A stretch of 64,000 nucleotides of DNA. Source: a virus. This document shows, piece after piece, positions 3,192 to 61,648 of this stretch. The position numbers and the translations under genes were made by a program. The first letter of the stretch is position 1, and each line of letters opens with the position of its first letter. A model generated the notes under the pieces. The model was given only the letters and a program-made list of their open reading frames with translations. It ran no database searches and had not been told where the DNA came from. The DNA lies in IMG/VR virus record IMGVR_UViG_2974694417_000001, positions 60,580 to 124,579 of that record, one strand, 5' to 3'.

Positions 3192-6019
3192 ATGGAAAAT
3201 TTATTTGTTGTTAAGAAAAGAACAGATGAGAAACAAGAAAGGGTGACGGAAGAATGGAACTTCGATAAGGTAATTTCTGCCTGTCAAAAGTCAGCCCAAC
3301 ACATAGATAAATCTCTAACTAAAGAACAAATTGAGAGTTTAGAATATTTAGTTGACAAATCTATTAACAAGCGTAGAACTAAAATATTAAATAATAGAGG
3401 TGTCCCATTCAGAGAAATTTTAAATAATATCCCTGTGGAAGAAGTCCACGAAATGGTGCAAGATGCTTTGAGATTGCTTGATGTTGATATATATAAGTCA
3501 TATCATGAATATCGAAATTATAAAATATCACAAGATAAGCATTACCGTGAACTATACAAAGATTTGGATAGTCTTAAGAATGGAATTTATACTGAGAATG
3601 CAAACAAAGATAGCTCTATTAATTCAACCAAGCGTTCTCTTCTTGCTGAAATGACTCAAAAGAAAATTGTGACTGACTTTATTCTTCAAAAGAACTGGGC
3701 TAAGGCTCATGAAGAAGGATGGATTTATATTCATGACTTAGGAGATTTGTACTGGAGAAGTTTCAATTGTGATAACGTTGATTTAGCAAATATCATTAAG
3801 ACTAAAAAGCAAAAAGATGGAGAATATGCTTTTACTTTAAATGGTATTAAATATCCTGAACCTAAATCAATTAGTTCAGCTTTTAACTTAGTGGCAGATT
3901 TGATTTTACAGATGTCTAGCCAACAGCATGGAGGTCTTAGTGTTCAGAACTTTGACCATTGCCTAGCACCTTATGCAAAATTAACTTACGATAAAGCATT
4001 CAAAAGATATATGGAAAAGGGAATTGCATATAATACAGCACGTGAAATGGCAGAAGAAGATACTCTTTATGCAATCAAACAAGGTGTTCAAGGGTTTGAA
4101 CTTGAAATAAGTACTATCTCTAATGCACTAGGACAAATTCCATTTACATCAATTGGTTTTGGATTGGATACCTCTAAATGGGGTCGTGAAATTACTCGTG
4201 CTTTCTTGCTCGAACGTTCTGAACCAGATTGTGTGCTTGTCTTTCCTAAATTAATATTTGCTAGTGCTAAAGAAGTTAACTTGAATCCTGATTCACCTAA
4301 CTATGATTTATTCCAATTGGCTATTAAATGCAGTTCAACTAAATTATATCCTGATTACGTTTCAATGGATAATGGTATTCTTGCACCTGCATATAGTCGT
4401 CATAAAGATGACTTAGACCAAATTTTATCAGTACCAATGGGTTAGTTGGTGAAAATGTAGCCCATTTAAAACCTTGTGAACCTCTCTTAGAGGGTGTGGA
4501 TTAATATAATCTGCTAACAGTTAGGTCTTATTGATGTTTGTAGCAATCTTTAAGATGAGACTGTGCCAAGCCAAAACTCTGTTTTGGAAGGTGCAACGAC
4601 TATCCGTGATGAGTGTAGCGGAGCTTAGAAATAAGATATGTTTTAAAAACATATAGACCATGAGATAAGAACATGGTCGGAGCGCAAGGCAACTTTATGT
4701 TGATGATATAGTCTGTCCCATTGGTGACAATGGATTTTAGAGAAAATCATAACTCTAAACAAAGTACGTGCAGAAGCTACAATAATGTTGAATTTATTAA
4801 TCCTTTAGAGGATTCAGAAGACTTCCAAAAGGAAGTTTATAAAGGACGTGGAAATGTTGGTGTAGTAACAATTAATTTCCCTAAAATTGCTATCGAATCA
4901 GGTGGTGACTGGAATAAATTCTATGAATTACTACATAAATATACAAATATGACGATGGATATCTTAGATTGGAGATATTATTATGCTGGAGAAGCTAGAG
5001 CAGAAAGCAATCCTCTAATGTGGATGGAAGGTGGAGCATGGAGACGACTCAACCATGATGAAAAAATCTCTAAAACAATCTTTAATTTTTCTTCATCTAT
5101 TGGATTGATTGGATTCAACGAAACTTTGAATTATATGTATTTAAATAATGGATATGAAATTAATAACTTACCAGATTATAAAAAAGGTGGTCAACGTCAA
5201 CAAGACCAAATGAAATTAATGGAAGTCCTTAATTCAATTAAAGAATTTAGAAACATCCATGACGCTGTTCGTATTGATGAAGATGGTGTTCAAACTCGTG
5301 TTTGGGATGAAGAAGGAAACTTTGTTCACCCAGACCCAGACAAGAAATACCTTGAAGTTTATGAAAAGTTAGACACCACACACAAAACAACTATTATACC
5401 TCGTATGTATTCTATCTATGGAACACCTGCTGAATCTCTTGTGTATAAAATGATGAAGCAATTACAAAAACAATATGGATTCATTAATGGTGTTACGGCT
5501 CAAGAAGATGGAAAAGGACGTAATTATATTACTAACTCATTCCACCAACCAGTGTGGGTAGAATCAAATGTGTTTGATAAGATTGATTTTGAAGCACCTT
5601 TTCATTTAGATAAAATGGCAAGTGGTGGACATATTAGTCAAAATGAATTTGCATTCGGAACAGCGGTGACAATTCTTGAACAAACTGTTAAATATGCAAT
5701 GGAGAAAGGGATGTATTACGGCATCAATATTGCATCTAGTCATTGCTTCGATTGTGGTTGGAGTGGAGAGACAGCAGATACTTGTGTTGAATGCAACTCA
5801 GAGAATGTCGTAACGATAAATAGAGTTTGCGGATATATGTCTATTACATCACGCAATGGACACAGTGTTGTCAATGCTGGTAAGACAGAGGAATTACTTG
5901 AACGTGTTAATCACTTTGGAAATGCTAAGAAAGAATATACTAAAAACTTTGAGAAAAAACATGACATACAAAGGGATGTTGTATCGAAAGAGTTCTCAAT
6001 GTTTGAATCAGGAGAATAA
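3192..6019 (+). CDS. nrdD: Anaerobic (class III) ribonucleotide reductase; exons 3192-4442 + 4769-6019, 833 aa spliced
   Basis: N-terminal ATP-cone-like region. Splicing restores PMG|CRS (thiyl-radical Cys). YGTPAESL, CxxC...CxxC and RVCGY glycyl-radical loop are present. Confidence 0.93.
4443..4768 (+). mobile_element. Group I intron in nrdD (326 nt, no ORF)
   Basis: Exon ends in U with P1 AUGGGU|UA...UAGCCCAU. Core GCAACGACUA and GAUAUAGUC (P7) present, terminal G4768, exons join in frame. Confidence 0.92.
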
Positions 6020-7941: not shown

Positions 7942-10900
7942 TTGACAGTCACAAAGATTGAAACAAAAGAATCAGTAACACCAGAGTATTTTATGCTCAA
8001 CAACCAACTAAATATCGTTAAAGACGGTAAAATTCAGTTGAACGCAGACAGAGAAGCTGTCCATAGCTATTTCATTGATTACGTAAACCCTCATACAGTC
8101 TATTTTGGAGACTTACGTGAGAAGCTTGACTATTTAGTGAAACACAAGTATATTAAAGGCGAAGTACTTGATAAATATACTTTCAAATTTATTAAAAAAT
8201 TATTTAAAACTTTGTACAACAAGAAATTTCGATTTACAACTTTCATGGGTGCTTATAAATTTTACACACAGTATGCTATGCGCACCACAGATAACAAGTC
8301 AATTCTTGAACGATATGAAGACCGCATTGCTTTTAATGCCTTAGTTATGGCTGATGGTGACGAACAATTGGCTCTTAACATTGCGCATGAAATGATTTCA
8401 CAAACCTATCAACCTGCAACACCAACATTCTCTAATGCTGGTAAGTTGCGTGGTGGTAATGCTGTATCATGTTTCCTTTTGAATATTGAAGATAATATGA
8501 CGTCTATTGGGCGCTCAGTAAATTCAGTTCTTCAATTGTCTAAAATGGGTGGTGGAGTTGGAATCAACTTAACTGATATCCGTCCGTCAGGAGACCCTAT
8601 CAAGGGTATTGAGAATATGGCTGATGGAGTTGTTCCAATCATGAAACTCTATGAAGATTCATTTTCATATGCCAATCAGTTGGGGACAAGAAATGGGGCA
8701 GGAGTAACTTATCTCAATGTATTCCATAAAGATATTGTTAAATTCCTCTCTACAAAAAAAGAAAATGCTGACGAAAAAGTTCGTGTTAAAACTCTTTCTC
8801 TCGGTGTTGTAGTTCCTGATAAATTCTATGAACTCATTGCTAAAGGTGAATCAATGTATTTGTTTAGCCCTTATGATATCTACAATGAGTATGGAAAACT
8901 AATGTCTGAAATCAACATCACAGAAATGTATGATGAATTAGTTGAAAACAAAAATATCAAGAAAGATAAAATCTTTGCTCGTGACCTTGAAGAAGAAATG
9001 TCTAAACTTATTCAAGAATCAGGATATCCATACATCATCAACATTGATACAGCAAACCAAGAAAATGCTGTTGACGGTGTAATTAAAATGTCTAACCTTT
9101 GCTCTGAAATCCTTCAAGTACAATCTCCATCAGAATTGAACTCAGACCAAACTTATAAGACTATTGGAACTGACGTATCATGTAACCTTGGTTCAACTAA
9201 TATTACACATCTTATGGAGTCATCTGACTTCGGAAGCTCTGTTAGAACAGCATTTCGTGCATTAGCCTATGTTGCAGATAGCTCTAACATTGAAGAAGTT
9301 CCTACTGTTAAGAACGCCAACGATAAGTATCACTCAGTAGGGTTGAAAATCGCCTAGCTCTACTATAAAATTTTGCTATATGCTGGAAACTCTTAAAGAT
9401 ATTGATACTTGAATCTTACCAATTCGCAAAAGTAAAAATTCAATATATAGATAGACAATCAGCAGGGAAGTCGTGGTTGACCCCTCAGAGACTACACGCA
9501 GAACAACTTAACCAAAAAAAAAAAAAAATACCCACTTAACTACTATTATAGAAAGGAGAACACATGGAAGAATTATGGTCTAATATTGATGGTTTTAATA
9601 GCAAATACCTTATAAGTTCTTTAGGTAGAATTAAAATTAAGGATAATACATCTAAAAGAATTAATAACGGTGTTTTGTGTAATTATCATCAAAAGGAAAT
9701 GATAAAATCTATAAAAATAAACGATAATAAAAATGAATATGTGAGAGTTTCTCTAGTTCATAATGGTGATAATAAAACAAAAACAGTTTATATACACAGA
9801 TTGGTTGCAAAGGCATTTATTCCTAATCCTAAAAACCTACCAGAAGTAAACCACATAAATGATAAGAAGAGTGACAATAGAGTTGAGAATCTTGAATGGT
9901 GCGATAAAAGCTATAACATGAAACATGCAATAGAATATCTTAGTTTCAAAGCTGACACCTCCAATTTACATGACAAAAGACCTGTTTATCAAATAGATAA
10001 AGACACTGATGAGATAATTAAATCTTTTGATAGTATCACTCAAGCTACCAGAGAAACAGGGGTTTTGCACATCTCTGGTGTTTGTTTGGATAACAGACGT
10101 ACAGCTGGTGGATTTAAATGGAAATATAAAGAATAACAACTAATGGTTAAGTTGAAGATATAGTCCAAACCCTAGACAAATATCTCGAAAGAGAGGGTAT
10201 TTTCATTGTAGGCGCAATGGGGCTACATGGATTCCTTGCTAAAAACGGAATCCTCTATGGTTCTCCTGAATCAATTGAGTTCACAGGTATGTACTTCCAA
10301 CTCCTAAACTATTGGACTTTGTTTGAAAGCAATCAAATTGCTATTGAACGCAATCAAGCCTTCTATAACTTTGATAAGTCAGAATATGCAAATGGTAAAT
10401 ACTTCAAACGCTATCTACCACGTGTTAAATTCAAAAACAATCTTTCTGATACAGTTAAAGATTTGTTTAAAGACATTGATATTCCAACTGTACAAGACTG
10501 GGCTGACTTACAATCTTCAATCGAAGAACATGGTTTATATAACTCTTATCGTTTGGCAGTTGCTCCTTAACAACCTAGGGCGCTTAAAAATTAATTTAAG
10601 TGTAAACCTCTTTGAACTGCTGGGAAACCTTACTGCGTAATGGCAAAGGCAATCAGCAACGAAGCTTTAGTAATTTAATTAAATTATTAAAGAACGCTCA
10701 ACGACTATTCCGTAGCTGGAAGTAGGTATCGAGTGATACCGAAGTGGAGAGGGTCTTACAATTGTAAGGCAAGATATAGTCTGCTCTATATAGAAATATA
10801 TAGCAGTTAAAGTTTCATAACGACTTTAACGGTGTGAGCCTAACGAACTCATGCGAACAAAAGGACAGGTTCTATTAGTTATGTTAATGAAGCTACAGCA

Positions 10901-22090: not shown

Positions 22091-22139
22091 AAAATAGTTG
22101 GGGCTTAGTCTTGACTATTTTTTTGTTTTATGATATAAT
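22091..22139 (+). promoter_or_regulatory. sigmaA promoter of dnaE with -35 in the 3' arm of a terminator-like hairpin
   Basis: TTGACT(22111)-17-TATAAT(22134); AAAATAGTTGGGG/TCTTGACTATTTT stem followed by a T run. Confidence 0.8.
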
Positions 22140-22179: not shown

Positions 22180-25100
22180 ATGACAGACTTAAACGCATTA
22201 ACATACCAAAACATTCACTCACACAGTTTTTATTCAAATATTTCAACACATGACTCAGTTATCTCTCGTACAGATGTAGCAGAGCGTGCTGTTGAGCTAG
22301 GGCATACAACCTTATCATGTATTGAGCATGGTTATATGGGGAACGTATTTGAAACTTATAGAATTGCTAAACAATTTAATCTTAAACTAATCTTTGGAAC
22401 AGAGTTCTATTATGTTAAAGACCGCTTCGAGAAAGACCGTACTAACTCTCACTTGCTCGTTGTAGCTAAGAATGAGAATGGGAAAGAGGCTATTACAGGG
22501 CTTATTTCAGAATCATATCAAACTGGATTCTATGGACGTAACCGTATTGACGAAGAATTATTATTCTCTCTTCCAAAAGATGATGTTATTGTAACGACTG
22601 CTTGTATTGCAAGCCCTATTAATCTTTATGAGGGATATGCTGAGTACTTCATTCCAAAAGCTAAAGCTTATTTTGGCGACAACTTCTTCTTGGAAGTTCA
22701 ACCACATTGGAATAAAAAGCAAGCTGACTTTAATAAAAAGTTAGTTGAATACCGTAAAGAATATAATGTTCCTTTTATCTTAGGTGTTGATACTCATTAT
22801 ATCAAAGAAGAAGATTATAAAATGCGTGACATCTATCTTAAATCTCGTAAAATTGTTTATGATAAAGAGGAGGGGTTCTTCATGGACTATCCTGAAACAA
22901 AAACAATCATTGAGAGATTTAACAAACAGGCTGTATTGAGTGACGAACAAATCACAGAAGCTTTTAATAACAGCCATATTGTTGATGAGTTTGATTCTAT
23001 TGAGATTACCGATGATATTAAAATGCCATCAGTTTACCCAGATAAAACAGAAGAAGAAAAGGTTGAGATTCTTAAAAAGCATATTAATAAAGCTTGGATT
23101 GAAGACCGTAAGCATATTCCGAAAGAACGTCATAAGGAGTATATCGAAGCTATTAAATCAGAGATGTCTATTGTAGAGAATACTCACATGACAGATTACT
23201 TCTTGATGAATGAAAAAATTATTAGTTTAGGAAAAGAGAAATATGGTGGAGTCTTGACTAAGACAGGAAGAGGGAGCGCACCTTCTTTCTACTTAAATAA
23301 ACTACTTGATTTTACAGCAGTAGACCGTGTCAATTCGCCATTAAAATTATATCCTACTCGATTTATGTCTGAATCACGTATACTAGAGGCAAAAAGTTTA
23401 CCAGATGTGGATTTTAATACGGCTAATCCAGAACCTTTTATGAGAGCTCAGAAAGAAATTTTGGGAGAAGATAATGCCTATCAAATGATTGCTTATGGTA
23501 CAATGCAAGAAAAAGATGCTTTCAAAACATATTGTCGTGGGTTAGATATACCAAAAAATGAATATTGGACAATTGCCGATGACCTTGAACGTTGGGTTAA
23601 AACTGATAAATGGCGAGATATCATTAAAACTAGCCAACAATTCATTGGTGTTGTCACTTCATTTTCACCTCACCCATGTTCATCATTACTTTTGTCAGAC
23701 CCTATCTCTCGCAAGATTGGTGTCATTAAGACAAAAGAAGGTGTAGATGTTGCTTTAATTGGTTCGTATGATTCAGATGTTTATAAATATCTTAAAAACG
23801 ACTTATTAGTTGTTACTGTTTGGGACATTATCGCTAAAGTATGTAAAGAATTAGATATTGAAATTCCTGATGTGCGTACTCTTACAAAACTAGTAGAGAA
23901 TAATGATAAAGTATGGGACTTGTATAAAGATGGAATGGTTGCAACTCTTAATCAAGCTGGAACACCTTCTGGCAAGCCACAAGTTATGCAATATAAACCT
24001 CAAAGTGTTCGTGAATTAAGTATGTGGGTTGCAGGTATTCGCCCTTCATTCGCAAGTATGAAATCCTATTTCTTAAATAGACAACCTTTTAGCTATAACA
24101 TCCCAGCCTTTGATAAACTTCTTAAGGATAGTGATAATTTCGTGCTCTTCCAAGAATCAATTATGGCAACCTTACAATTCGCTGGGTACGAAGAAGATGT
24201 TACTTATGGACTTCTTAAAGCTATTGCCAAGAAGAAAAAAGGTATTATTGAACCTATCCACGACAAATTTATTGAGGGATTCGTAGCTAAAACTGGTTCA
24301 GAAGAACAGGCTTTAAAAGTTTGGACTATCATTGAGAATGCCGTTGGGTAAACGGAGGTATCTTCAATGCAAAATAAAAAATTTAAAAACAATTATATTC
24401 TGACAGAAAAAGATAAAAAATTATTAATAGATTTATACTATCAAAACATCAAATTTAAAGAAATGAAAGAAATTACCAATTTTCCTTATCGAAAAATACG
24501 TGATTTCTTTAAAAACAATAATCTTAATTTGGTTAAAAGATATACTTTAAATGAAAATTATTTTGATAGTATTGACAATGCAAAGCAAGCTTATTGGTTA
24601 GGTTACTTATGGACTGATGGATTTGTTGGTTCTGGTAAATACAATAATATTGTACTTTCTAGTATTGATGAAAATGTAGTAGATGAATTTAACAAAGATA
24701 TATCACTAGTTGGTATAAATTTTAAGAAGGTTCATACTGATAGAAGTAATTCTTATGGTAACAAAACTTTATTTGAATCTCGATTTTCTTCATATAAAAT
24801 GGCTGAAAATCTAAGACACTATAATATTACAGCCAATAGAAAAGAAACTAATTTTTTACCAGTTGAAAATATTCCATCAAAAATTTTAAAATATGTACTC
24901 TTTGGGATGCTTGATGGAGATGGTAATCTTGGAGCTAGAGGTGGAAATCTAATTTCAGTAAACATATATGCAACTTCAAATAATTTAGATTCATATATAA
25001 ATTTTGTCAAACTATTAAATTTATCTTATTCTGTTAACTATCATAAAGAAAAAGAATGTAATTATATCCGTTTTCTTTTAAAAGATGATTTCACTAGAGA

Positions 25101-26439
25101 AATAATAAAAGAATATCTAGCCACATCTCTCATAAAAAGAAAATCTGCCCCTTTACTATCGTGAGATAGTGTCGAAAACAGTTTAAACTGCTGGAACTCC
25201 CTAAAGACATATTAACTACAACGTAACTAGAAATGGTAAGCGTGAATGTTGCGAAAGCAGAAAAAATAATATGTATGACCTATGTTGAAATAAAAGCCGA
25301 AAGGTACTAAGGGTTTGGACAATGGGAAATCAGCAACGAAATTCCTTCAAAGGAAGACGCTCAACGACTATAATAGCTGATAGATTATAAATCTATATTG
25401 TATAGTTCTACTCCGTAATAAATATGACGAAAGTCACGGTATAAAGGATAGTTTTAACTCATCACACGCTTACTCTGTAGCCCTTGATTCATTATATGGT
25501 GCATGGCTCAAAGCCAATCATCCATTAGAGTATTTCTCAGTGGTTTTGAATGTTTACAAAAACTCCAAAGATAAACAAGCTGAATTAATTAACGAACTAG
25601 AATACTTTGGAATAACTCTTAAAGGATTACAATTTGGTAAATCTAAATCTGATTATTCTTATGAAACAGAAACAAATACAATCTATAAGGGAATCTCTAC
25701 CGTTGCGTATCTTAATCAACAAGTCTCAGATAACCTCTACAATCTTGCAAACGAGAAACATTATGAAAAAGATGATATTGTTCAACTCTTTCTTGACATC
25801 TTAGATGGTGCTCTTGCCGACAATAGACAAATGAATATCTTGATTAAACTTGGATTCTTTAAAGAATTTGGTGAAGAATCAATACTTCTTGAACTCTACA
25901 ATACGATGACTGGATATCAAGCTAAGAAGCCCAACCCTATCTTTACAGATAACAAAAAGCTTGACGTCAAATACTCACGTACACACAAGGAGAAAACTAA
26001 GCTTGTACGTATTGAAAATATTAAAGAATATTATGGTTTAATCTTGAAAAATGCTCATTTACTTCCTACGACTAATCTATTTGATAGACTTACAAGTGAA
26101 GTTGAGTACATGGGATATGCTGAAACTCTTGACCAAAGTCTTGGAAAAAATGTTTACGTTGTTATGGATATCAATACTAAATATACACCAGTTTATACTC
26201 TATATAATATGTATGATGGACATATCTCTGTTGCCAAGATTGATAAGAAAAAAGCTTATCGTGATACAAAATCAACCAAAGATGGAGAATTAATCATCAA
26301 ACTTGGAGACCAGATTGAAGTTATGGAATTTGCTCAAAGACCTAAAATGGCTTTAGTTGATGGTAAATGGGAATCAAACTATGACCAAATGCAAGATTAC
26401 ATCGAACATGTTCGAATGATTAAACGTTATGAAGATTAA
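22180..26439 (+). CDS. dnaE: DNA polymerase III alpha subunit (DnaE-type, family C); exons 22180-24349 + 25448-26439, 1053 aa spliced
   Basis: PHP domain HSHS/EHG/DTHY, GRGSA, PDVDF, KNDLL. Splicing restores NAVG|YSFNSSHAYS. Confidence 0.93.
24350..25447 (+). mobile_element. Group I intron in dnaE (1098 nt) with LAGLIDADG endonuclease in the P1 loop
   Basis: GGGU| exon end; candidate IGS GCCC at 25147; P2 ACUAUC-GUGA-GAUAGU; P3 CAGUU/AGCUG; CUCAACGACUA core; terminal G25447. Confidence 0.9.
24367..25164 (+). CDS. Intron-encoded LAGLIDADG homing endonuclease (two motifs)
   Basis: AYWLGYLWTDGFV and YVLFGMLDGDGNL; preceded by RYTLNENYFDSID; GGAGG RBS. Confidence 0.88.
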   Translation: MQNKKFKNNYILTEKDKKLLIDLYYQNIKFKEMKEITNFPYRKIRDFFKNNNLNLVKRYTLNENYFDSIDNAKQAYWLGYLWTDGFVGSGKYNNIVLSSIDENVVDEFNKDISLVGINFKKVHTDRSNSYGNKTLFESRFSSYKMAENLRHYNITANRKETNFLPVENIPSKILKYVLFGMLDGDGNLGARGGNLISVNIYATSNNLDSYINFVKLLNLSYSVNYHKEKECNYIRFLLKDDFTREIIKEYLATSLIKRKSAPLLS

Positions 26440-59950: not shown

Positions 59951-61648
59951 TTATTTGAATCTTTTATAAACAGGTGCTTTAATTTTCATGAAGCCATATG
60001 CATCATCATCTGGTTTCTTTCTCTTTCTTTTGCTTTCTGATTCTTCTAAATAAATCCAATAGAGACCATAAGCAAAAGCAGAGTACCTATCTTTTTGTAT
60101 TTTTTGAGATACCTGTTTAACAGTACCTGTATTACCATTATTTACATATTCGAGGTTCATGATTTCATCAACTAATCGGTCTGTCTGAATAAATGGTAAT
60201 AATTTATCAGCTTCTTTTCGTGGGTCTTTTTCTTTGATACTTGCTTGAATCTTAGACTCGGAAGTTAATATTTTAACATCATTGTTCGCAAATGTAGCCA
60301 TGAAGTGGTTAATGATGTTTGAGTTCTTAGTGCCTTTCTTTTGAGCGGATACTGCGAAAATCATAGGAATACTATTTGGTTTCTTATACTCAGCATAACC
60401 ATCATCATTTACAACACTATAAGGAGGGTTGTCATCGATTTCACTTGTTAAGTAATCGACCAATCCCCAACCCATACCATTAATATCGACACAGAGGATT
60501 GTCGCATTGAACTCGTTTACTTTTTGTTTCAAGAACTTGGCTTGATTCTCAAAGTGACTACCTTGCATTGTGAAAATATTAACTAAATGCTTAGTATAAG
60601 TTCCATCTCCTCTATCCTCAATACGTATTACTGCCAAAGAACTATTGGCTGTGTTGCCAGTTGTTGCTCTAGCTACGTCGTATGATAGAACGAATCTTAC
60701 ATTAGGATTCTTTTTATCTTCACTATTAATTTTCCACATTGGTTTCTCTAAAACACGAGCTTTACTTATTTCGTCTGCTGAGACTAATGATTTTTCACTA
60801 GAACCAGTAAAGACTGACCTAAACTCACGTTCAAATGAAAGTGGGCTATATGTAGGGTCTTCAAGTTTTTCATTAACATCATCTATATCAAGCGTTCCAA
60901 AATGTGTTCCCATCTCGTAACTCGTCCCAAGAACAATTGTCGGTTTACCCTGCTCCATCTCTTCATATAATGCCCTAAACTTATCATAACAATAAGATTG
61001 CTTATGAGAAGCCGTTGTAACATAAGCTTCTGTTTTAGAGTATTCGTTTTCTTTGTCAACACCATGACCAACAACGTTACGTGCTTGTGCAAGCATTGGA
61101 CGTATAACTTCATTAATTGTTTTTGCGTCCATACGTTCGTCAACTATTTCCTCTAGGGTAATTCCTTGTGCACGTAAACCACGTGAACTTTCACCTACTG
61201 TAAGAGTATCTAGTGTTGAACCGTTTTTGAAGACTAGCTTAACATAATCTTTTTCGAATTTACATTTATTGAAGATTAATTCATTTTTGAGTAATGGATA
61301 ATCTCTCCAAAACTCTTCGAACTTAGACTTAACTACTTTTGCAGATTGTTCTTTAGTTGGCATTGCGACTGCCAAGGCATTATTTGGATATAGAATACAT
61401 TTAACATAATTTGAAAGAAGTTCAATATATGTTTTAGAAATACCACGACTAGCTACAATTCCTACTCTCTTATAACGAAAGAAAGTTCGCATATAAACTC
61501 TTTGGAATGGAAGTAAATCAAACATTGTGGATTCTGTCTTGATATAATCTATGAATCTGTCTGGATACATTCTGAAATATGAAATCATATCTCTAAAACC
61601 ATCTTTAACATCTCCAAAATTATCATTAAATTCTTTAACTGATAACAT
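59951..61648 (-). CDS. Terminase large subunit
   Basis: Walker A-like ASRGISKT, RGLRAQGITLEE (Walker B), VTTA, SYDVAR and KDRYSAFAYG nuclease motifs. Confidence 0.92.
   Translation of the reverse strand: MLSVKEFNDNFGDVKDGFRDMISYFRMYPDRFIDYIKTESTMFDLLPFQRVYMRTFFRYKRVGIVASRGISKTYIELLSNYVKCILYPNNALAVAMPTKEQSAKVVKSKFEEFWRDYPLLKNELIFNKCKFEKDYVKLVFKNGSTLDTLTVGESSRGLRAQGITLEEIVDERMDAKTINEVIRPMLAQARNVVGHGVDKENEYSKTEAYVTTASHKQSYCYDKFRALYEEMEQGKPTIVLGTSYEMGTHFGTLDIDDVNEKLEDPTYSPLSFEREFRSVFTGSSEKSLVSADEISKARVLEKPMWKINSEDKKNPNVRFVLSYDVARATTGNTANSSLAVIRIEDRGDGTYTKHLVNIFTMQGSHFENQAKFLKQKVNEFNATILCVDINGMGWGLVDYLTSEIDDNPPYSVVNDDGYAEYKKPNSIPMIFAVSAQKKGTKNSNIINHFMATFANNDVKILTSESKIQASIKEKDPRKEADKLLPFIQTDRLVDEIMNLEYVNNGNTGTVKQVSQKIQKDRYSAFAYGLYWIYLEESESKRKRKKPDDDAYGFMKIKAPVYKRFK

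Follow-up and report, generated by a model that had tools for sequence, protein, structure and literature searches.

We found that the dnaE gene in a 64,000-nucleotide (nt) stretch of viral DNA (IMG/VR virus record IMGVR_UViG_2974694417_000001, positions 60,580 to 124,579; henceforth the window) is interrupted by a group I intron of 1098 nt, which carries a LAGLIDADG endonuclease gene in the loop of its first helix, P1. The last bases of the upstream exon are predicted to fold back on the ribosome-binding site (RBS) and start codon of this gene. Taking the evidence together, we lean towards the view that this is a mobile intron in which exon 1 represses the nuclease, the precursor splices first and the excised intron becomes the nuclease mRNA. 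As read from the compared sequences, this is a real architecture that recurs and is assembled from known elements:

22180–24349, + strand: dnaE exon 1 (PHP, NTPase/palm and fingers), ending in ENAVG and the first base of a Tyr codon; from domain search and comparison with phage AM4
24330–24346, + strand: exon strand of the junction hairpin, codons IIENAVG; from folding and covariation
24346–24350, + strand: exon strand of P1, GGGU/A (the slash marks the 5′ splice site, which follows U24349), located inside the hairpin loop or at its margin; from pairing and folding
24350–25447, + strand: the group I intron; from restoration of the exons against intronless phages and a partial match to Rfam RF00028
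24353–24369, + strand: intron strand of the junction hairpin, with the Shine-Dalgarno (SD) sequence GGAGG (24354–24358), spacer and AUG (24367–24369); from folding
24367–25164, + strand: gene for a 265-amino-acid (aa) two-motif LAGLIDADG endonuclease with an N-terminal three-helix domain, in the P1 loop; from motifs and predicted structure
25141–25150, + strand: internal guide sequence (IGS), made up of a P10 strand (25141–25146), the wobble G25147 and CCC, and coding for K-S-A-P; from homology and pairing
25155–25170, + strand: P2, with a GUGA tetraloop (25161–25164) containing the endonuclease stop codon; from alignment and covariation
25179–25447, + strand: ribozyme core, ending in the omega-G at 25447; from motif and alignment, sub-threshold in Rfam
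25448–26439, + strand: dnaE exon 2 (Y-SFNSSHAYS...); from domain search and comparison with AM4

The flanks are recognizable as dnaE by PHP, palm and fingers domains upstream and a weak HhH match downstream. Excision of 24350–25447 yields a DnaE of 1053 aa with no stops, of which 1024 residues (97%) are identical to the intronless DnaE of AM4, and this uninterrupted frame fixes the splice sites at U24349 and G25447. Exon 1 ends in GGG T at 24349, so that the unspliced frame meets TAA at 24349–24351, and the SD sequence follows, seven bases before the ATG at 24367. A first-pass annotation, made from the sequence, had placed the junction stop, GGAGG and ATG correctly, and had rightly put the core far downstream of the ATG (about 800 nt to the guide).

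A hairpin of some 15 base pairs (bp) is predicted, with the last 20 bases of the exon on one side and the intron leader plus AUG on the other; it holds the splice site in its loop. Its minimum free energy in the window is −14.9 kcal/mol at 37 °C (z −3.0). Close homologs have a more stable version (−20 to −24 in L005–L011, at 30 °C; L numbers denote related sequences), and the approximately 15 exon–leader pairs are kept in all context sizes folded. Opening the RBS is predicted to cost 12–15 kcal/mol in the precursor versus 3–4.5 in the excised intron, and the nuclease RBS is the costliest to open among 44 starts tested in the window. On the tree, the exon–leader helix is seen in three clades with differing leader sequences (the window group, L047 and L015). 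In the hairpin alignment, 91% of cells are paired and four pairs have two-sided changes, which exceed 0–3 of 500 shuffles and all slid registers, and shuffling of the leader gives p 0.023 for the window and a combined 0.003 over five lineages. The leaders of the distant clades (L047 and L015) favor their own exon type, that of L047 pairing at −13.6 with its own exon versus −3.8 to −7.5 otherwise; the z values of the hairpin run from −2.5 to −5.5. A further exon–leader hairpin, in L014, vanished with more sequence context and was not counted. Freeing the P1 strand costs 0–3.4 kcal/mol in the hairpin-bearing clades, so the hairpin and P1 are compatible in base-pair terms.

P1 itself consists of 5 bp formed with a guide about 800 nt from the 5′ splice site. 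No local P1 was found near 24350, where the first-pass annotation had taken one to be fatal to its proposal: there is no favorable U·G-closed duplex within 80 nt of the splice site (best +0.8 kcal/mol), and the hairpin is present instead. The assignment of G25147 as the wobble G of the guide is solid on four comparative grounds. It lies 14 nt before the GNRA loop of P2, as in three short-P1 core relatives (L056, L057 and L058); a compensatory change occurs at position −4 in L013 (exon AGGU, guide GCCU; one case); 25141–25146 can form P10 with exon 2 in most homologs, if weakly in the window; and synonymous sites are frozen in the last codons of the open reading frame (ORF) (5 of 6, against 8 of 52 in the body of the ORF; p ~5e-4). 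The first-pass annotation had named GCCC at 25147 as the only plausible IGS; the choice stands, but the claim that it has no competitor does not, as two other stretches are, by pairing energy, better partners for the exon end, from G24909 (−10.4 kcal/mol) and G25359 (−10.3), against −6.2 for the IGS:

24908–24917, + strand: decoy guide-like stretch in the ORF with a 10-bp match to the exon end; kept in the window and L005 only
25359–25366, + strand: core stretch (3′ strand of P6 and J6/7) open to mispairing with the final 8 nt of the exon; from pairing

Both were rejected as guides, G24909 for its restricted conservation and its distance of 250 nt from P2, G25359 as a part of the core, and both lose once the cost of opening the hairpin is counted. 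After this correction, by a crude ranking that ignores guide-side costs and loop closure, the true IGS comes out as the strongest net partner in 10 of 10 introns, while raw pairing prefers decoys in five. The SD stretch GGAGGU/A (24354–24360) also pairs with the IGS (25146–25152), at −7.2 versus −7.3 kcal/mol for the true exon end, and could mark, after U24359, a circularization or cryptic site; a circle closed there would place the 3′ end of the intron, AAAGG, before the AUG as a new SD. This pairing is not conserved in L047.

The ORF ends in RKSAPLLS, its last codons forming the guide sequence and P2, and its TGA stop (25162–25164) lies inside the GUGA loop of P2, a helix that covaries. The first-pass annotation was right on each of these points (an ORF in the P1 loop, SAPLLS laid over the IGS and a P2 strand, the stop in the loop), and also in stating that a ribosome finishing the ORF must unwind P1 and P2, a conflict known in kind from the T4 td intron (PMC2988022). 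The GUGA loop is, however, present in the ORF-less L057 too, and GAAA variants read through or stop earlier; the loop is therefore an RNA requirement and not a placed stop, and we discarded the stop-in-GNRA arrangement as a designed feature.

Since half of the hairpin is exon, splicing would unmask the RBS on the excised intron, and both products would thus be possible in sequence from one transcript. Comparison and predicted folding show the last bases of exon 1 paired with the 17-nt leader and the AUG, an arrangement that hides the RBS and leaves GGGU/A in the loop. We posit that the hairpin then blocks fresh initiation on the nascent precursor during transcription of the roughly 800 nt to the guide. 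It would also keep longer decoy pairings away from exon positions −5 to −20, so that the 5-bp P1 could form with the loop and splicing proceed. In Bacillota, RNA polymerase pulls ahead of the ribosomes (PMC13323073; phylum-level assignment); with the polymerase ahead, and an exon 1 of 2.2 kb against an intron of 1.1 kb, the intron could splice first. Splicing would remove the exon half, ribosomes on the spliced junction would strip any pairing in trans, and the excised intron with its open GGAGG would serve as nuclease mRNA, on which reading through the IGS and P2 would be harmless. On slow-splicing precursors, an exon-1 ribosome at the junction stop may melt the hairpin, and some may re-initiate 15 nt on, as a kinetic leak and not a regulated switch. 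Re-initiation after exon 1 had been the proposal of the first-pass annotation; the 15-nt gap suits it, but the conserved hairpin that would hide the SD and AUG in the precursor had been overlooked. The stronger form of our reading, in which translation is activated by splicing, the excised intron is the main nuclease mRNA, and the hairpin presents the splice site as a loop–guide pseudoknot while filtering out decoys, we put forward tentatively, as a live possibility that falls somewhat short of probable.

No sigma70-type promoter placed to start inside the hairpin was found (best 6–8 of 12 matches, at chance level, with other promoter types possible), and a site at 24110–24138 was rejected as a releasing promoter, since its start would fall upstream of the hairpin. 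Near the site, no Rfam element other than the intron core was found, and hence no sensing element. At other sites, the hairpins of long-leader introns lie mostly within the intron, and some of these introns have promoter-like sites, such as TTGACT-17-TATGCT in the L054 leader and TTAAAA-16-TATAAT in the L051 leader, the latter inside an RBS hairpin, which suggests T4-like promoter release in those two lineages.

Several points weigh against exon-mediated repression relieved by splicing. Exon hairpins close to a 5′ splice site can inhibit splicing (PMC3017892), and the exon–leader helix is absent from L013, whose leader is long and open. In L014 and L061 the start is masked by a leader/ORF hairpin and not by an exon–leader helix, the SD lies in an internal loop in L015, six of the homologs are close kin and not independent, and the exon side is fixed by the protein; both the hairpin and its gating are predicted from folding and comparison, to which the crudeness of the net-energy ranking adds. 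A hairpin over an upstream stop and a downstream RBS is moreover the textbook design for translational coupling, so that sequence alone cannot apportion the two routes. Were coupling to dominate, the nuclease would come mostly from unspliced precursor, by ribosomes that end at the junction stop, and each passage would unwind P1 and P2 in a fixed kinetic partition. The gap between junction stop and nuclease start, 15 nt in the window and 12–21 nt in ten same-site introns, fits this well, as does a hairpin spanning the last exon codons and the stop, which a terminating ribosome must melt; translation of a homing endonuclease gene (HEG) through core elements impairs td splicing (PMC2988022), and exon translation aids the folding of T4 introns (PMC3017892). 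Yet an excised intron with an open, strong RBS and a complete ORF should also be translated, a leading polymerase and an exon 1 (2170 nt) twice the length of the intron would leave time to splice first, and selection should disfavor blocking the mRNA of an essential replicase again and again, which together make dominance of coupling rather unlikely in our view.

The hairpin might otherwise exist chiefly for splicing, presenting the 5′ splice site, blocking decoys and perhaps tethering the cut exon, given that P1 has only 5 bp; hiding of the RBS would be a by-product, and the nuclease would be made from an unrecognized phage promoter or by leak. L015 keeps the helix despite its unpaired SD, decoys out-pair the IGS when the hairpin is left out, and there are promoter-like leader sites in long-leader relatives (10/12 in L051, 9/12 in L054). 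We nonetheless consider this improbable, because the helix of the window clade spans SD, spacer and AUG, beyond what shielding a splice site needs, because L014 and L061 hide the RBS with another hairpin, which points to selection on repression, and because no promoter match is in place. The built-in switch on the replicase suggested by the first-pass annotation would have the ratio of nuclease to full-length DnaE tuned by ribosome load and growth state, to the benefit of the phage. The geometry does permit mutually exclusive states on one precursor, and the overlap of ORF and guide is kept in most lineages, but the idea is not borne out: no signal input was found, nor any sensor among Rfam elements near the site, the overlap is dispensable (absent from L015, L060 and L030), six described relatives all lack the intron, which the phage thus does not need, and the features invoked have ordinary explanations, a GUGA loop occurring in L057 and junction stops being usual (PMC3073962). 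It strikes us as very improbable. Least credible, to the point of being nearly dismissible, is a hairpin with no role, a chance by-product of a G-rich SD beside a protein-constrained exon; its absence from L013, its weakness in L014 (p 0.13) and its weakening in the window by a new exon background fit such an origin, which sits poorly with the cognate-specific pairing in L047 and L015, the range of z values and the highest opening cost among the 44 starts.

The ribozyme core was delimited by motif and alignment because Rfam missed nearly all of these introns, matching that of the window only partially (RF00028, E 0.0036, 22.6 bits, below the 50-bit gathering score); P3 and its covariation were read by eye from the alignment. 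The core comprises P3 (25179–83/25375–79), P4 (25189–94/25331–35), P7 (25366–70/25403–08), an extended P5 domain and P6, P8 and P9 elements. The P, Q, R and S elements and covarying helices are present, with two-sided changes at 43 of 71 predicted core pairs among 11 relatives, as are the terminal omega-G (G25447) and a U24349·G25147 pair at the 5′ splice site. P7.1/P7.2 was not found between P7 and P3, the 3′ strand of P3 lying 4 nt after P7; the intron would therefore not belong to subgroup IA2 (the T4/SPO1/Twort type), and its large P5 extension reads as IB-like, short of a formal subgroup assignment. The 3′ strand of P7 (25403–25408) is UAGUUC and not UAGUC, the extra U producing a G·U or a bulged U at the guanosine-binding pair; it is common to the window, L008 and L009 and is thus no sequencing slip. 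The encoded protein is modeled with a LAGLIDADG fold (pLDDT 87), its best PDB matches being the TliVMA intein EN, I-Tsp061I, PI-SceI, bI3, I-AniI and I-DmoI; the catalytic acids of its two LAGLIDADG helices, D84 and D185, are invariant in 15 sequences, and Pfam LAGLIDADG_3 matches just under the cut-off (E 5e-4).

Homologs of the nuclease (44–98% identity) occupy the same dnaE site wherever flanks were examined. The reading frame of most same-site homologs closes in the L2 loop; that of L014 and L061 continues through P2, and in L015 and L060 it ends immediately ahead of the guide. About nine other phage intron lineages share the layout with a LAGLIDADG gene in the P1 loop, and in one branch the gene stops before the guide. 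Distant family members are found at the PD/ID motif of dnaE (0305phi8-36, RQ1, LC76P1, L030 and L042) and six bases downstream of the window's dnaE site (L034 and L023), other P1-loop hosts include gyrA of Goe21, a phi127 gene and L046, and the same nuclease family lies near the 3′ end of the core in the phiSA_BS1 recA intron. The IGS-to-L2 spacing is 13–14 nt in most of L048, L051, L054, L030, L042, L034, L023, L052, L055 and L046. Across lineages the position of the stop ranges from 21 nt upstream to 37 nt downstream of the wobble G of the IGS, a spread that is what core creep predicts (PMC3073962), and the overlap of ORF and IGS appears to be such tolerated core creep. In L046 (~3250–3320) the nuclease ORF is apparently frameshifted near its end, the other frame having an RKY motif and crossing the IGS. 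L059 (Staphylococcus phage DELF3, ~960–990) lacks a G at the expected IGS position, for which it was left out, and its local P1 is seemingly closed by U-A. A junction-pattern scan of viral contigs for ORF-less copies at the same dnaE site gave only seven unrelated matches, and no close relatives emerged when metagenome contigs, GTDB contigs and, with a single query, viral contigs were scanned. This class of introns is probably under-annotated, since Rfam misses nearly all members.

The virus record from which the window comes is 128 kb long and is related to Lactococcus phages of the 949 group (AM4, AM5, WRP3, P1048, 949, phiL47 and PMBT69). All described 949-group relatives match only the two flanks of the insert region and therefore lack the intron. 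Exon 1 is identical to that of AM4 through position −6 and differs at −5 to −2 (24345–24348, four changes), and exon 2 diverges over about 190 nt (25449–25640), asymmetrically to the upstream side; this switch in exon sequence looks like a recent arrival of the intron with co-conversion. In agreement with it, the leader of the window fits the GAGGAT exon of its relatives (−24.4) better than its own (−17.6). Homing is suggested at most indirectly, by patchy intron presence and the exon switch. The AM4/949 allele (GTG AAT T) is unable to pair with this IGS, and may be resistant to the nuclease. The precursor transcript likely stems from a promoter upstream of dnaE:

22111–22139, + strand: sigma70-type promoter before dnaE, TTGACT-17-TG-TATAAT, 11/12 matches; from consensus match only

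Related dnaE genes bear other insertions upstream, namely an intein (L007, 1–2485; 949 ORF116 is likewise longer), a NUMOD4-HNH ORF (L009, 1863–2414) and ORF-less gaps (L011, 1193–1574; L013, 1105–1437). Elsewhere in the window, nrdE contains two further group I introns with P7.1/P7.2 (~9357–10210 and 10570–10850), the first with a 190-aa HNH-like ORF late in its core, the second ORF-less, with TAA at its junction and an Rfam score of 87.9 bits.

Each part of the arrangement has a precedent. A stop codon at the junction is usual for group I introns of bacteria, and both ORF/core overlap and an ORF in P1 are known (PMC3073962). The T4 td intron with I-TevI shares a junction stop, an ORF whose 3′ end forms ribozyme helices, an SD hidden by a hairpin, and splicing that is impaired by untimely translation (PMC2988022, PMC3073962), removal of the I-TevI RBS hairpin lowering td splicing (PMC2988022). 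It differs in having its ORF in P6, a GIY-YIG nuclease and P7.1/P7.2, which the window intron lacks. Its hairpin is wholly intronic and released by a late promoter, whereas that of the window is half exon with no promoter in place, so that release would have to come from splicing or an exon ribosome; of the T4-type controls, an RBS-hiding hairpin is predicted here, and a wholly intronic hairpin with an internal promoter is not. The endonuclease ORF of the Synechocystis PCC 6803 tRNA-fMet intron (PD-(D/E)XK) likewise lies in P1, its P1/P2 overlap extending over 61 nt (PMC3073962, Table 1). Its tRNA host entails no upstream translation and no junction stop, and its nuclease is of another family. 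We know of no exon/RBS hairpin in it. The dnaE intron of Bacillus phage 0305phi8-36 (EF583821, ORF240/ORF036 'mobile intron protein') combines a phage dnaE host with a LAGLIDADG protein (28%) encoded between the 5′ splice site and the core, and its stop codon contains the wobble G of the IGS; its insertion site is PD/ID, its leader is 73 nt long, its hairpin is intron-internal, and we found it annotated, with no structural description. Ppo.L1925 (I-PpoI) and the twin-ribozyme Dir.S956-1 also have the HEG in a 5′ peripheral loop (P1/P2), and in twin-ribozyme introns excision switches on formation of the HEG mRNA (PMC3679873), but these are eukaryotic rRNA introns with His-Cys nucleases and a capping ribozyme in place of RBS unmasking. 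The closest ORF-less core relatives, from Staphylococcus/Enterococcus phages (phiSA_BS2 lysin, phiEF7H nrdE and SEP1), share 67–75% core identity, the 14-nt IGS-to-L2 spacing, the extended P5 and the lack of P7.1/P7.2, while having a short local P1 with no ORF in its loop. The sensing element of a regulated splicing switch, such as the c-di-GMP allosteric intron (PMC3984707), was not found in the window intron. LAGLIDADG is not listed as a typical nuclease family of phage introns in the reviews consulted (PMC3984707), and a literature search, with most subscription journals outside its reach, returned no paper on this intron, on the P1-loop LAGLIDADG class or on an exon as the repressor strand of an RBS.

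How a HEG can be translated inside a ribozyme without blocking its splicing has been worked out mainly for T4, with its internal hairpin and late promoter. These findings provide no evidence that the phage regulates its own replicase; they do show that phage mRNA introns carrying a LAGLIDADG gene in the P1 loop form a class that turns up repeatedly. The hairpin element is compact (40 nt), and natural variants exist with it, without it and with alternative hairpins; the long-range selection of P1 over an 800-nt loop might be useful in the design of ribozymes and circular RNAs. The intron family points to a second solution that needs no promoter, with the exon as repressor and splicing as release. 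If this is true, an intron in a phage mRNA could in this way withhold its homing enzyme until the host gene has been spliced.

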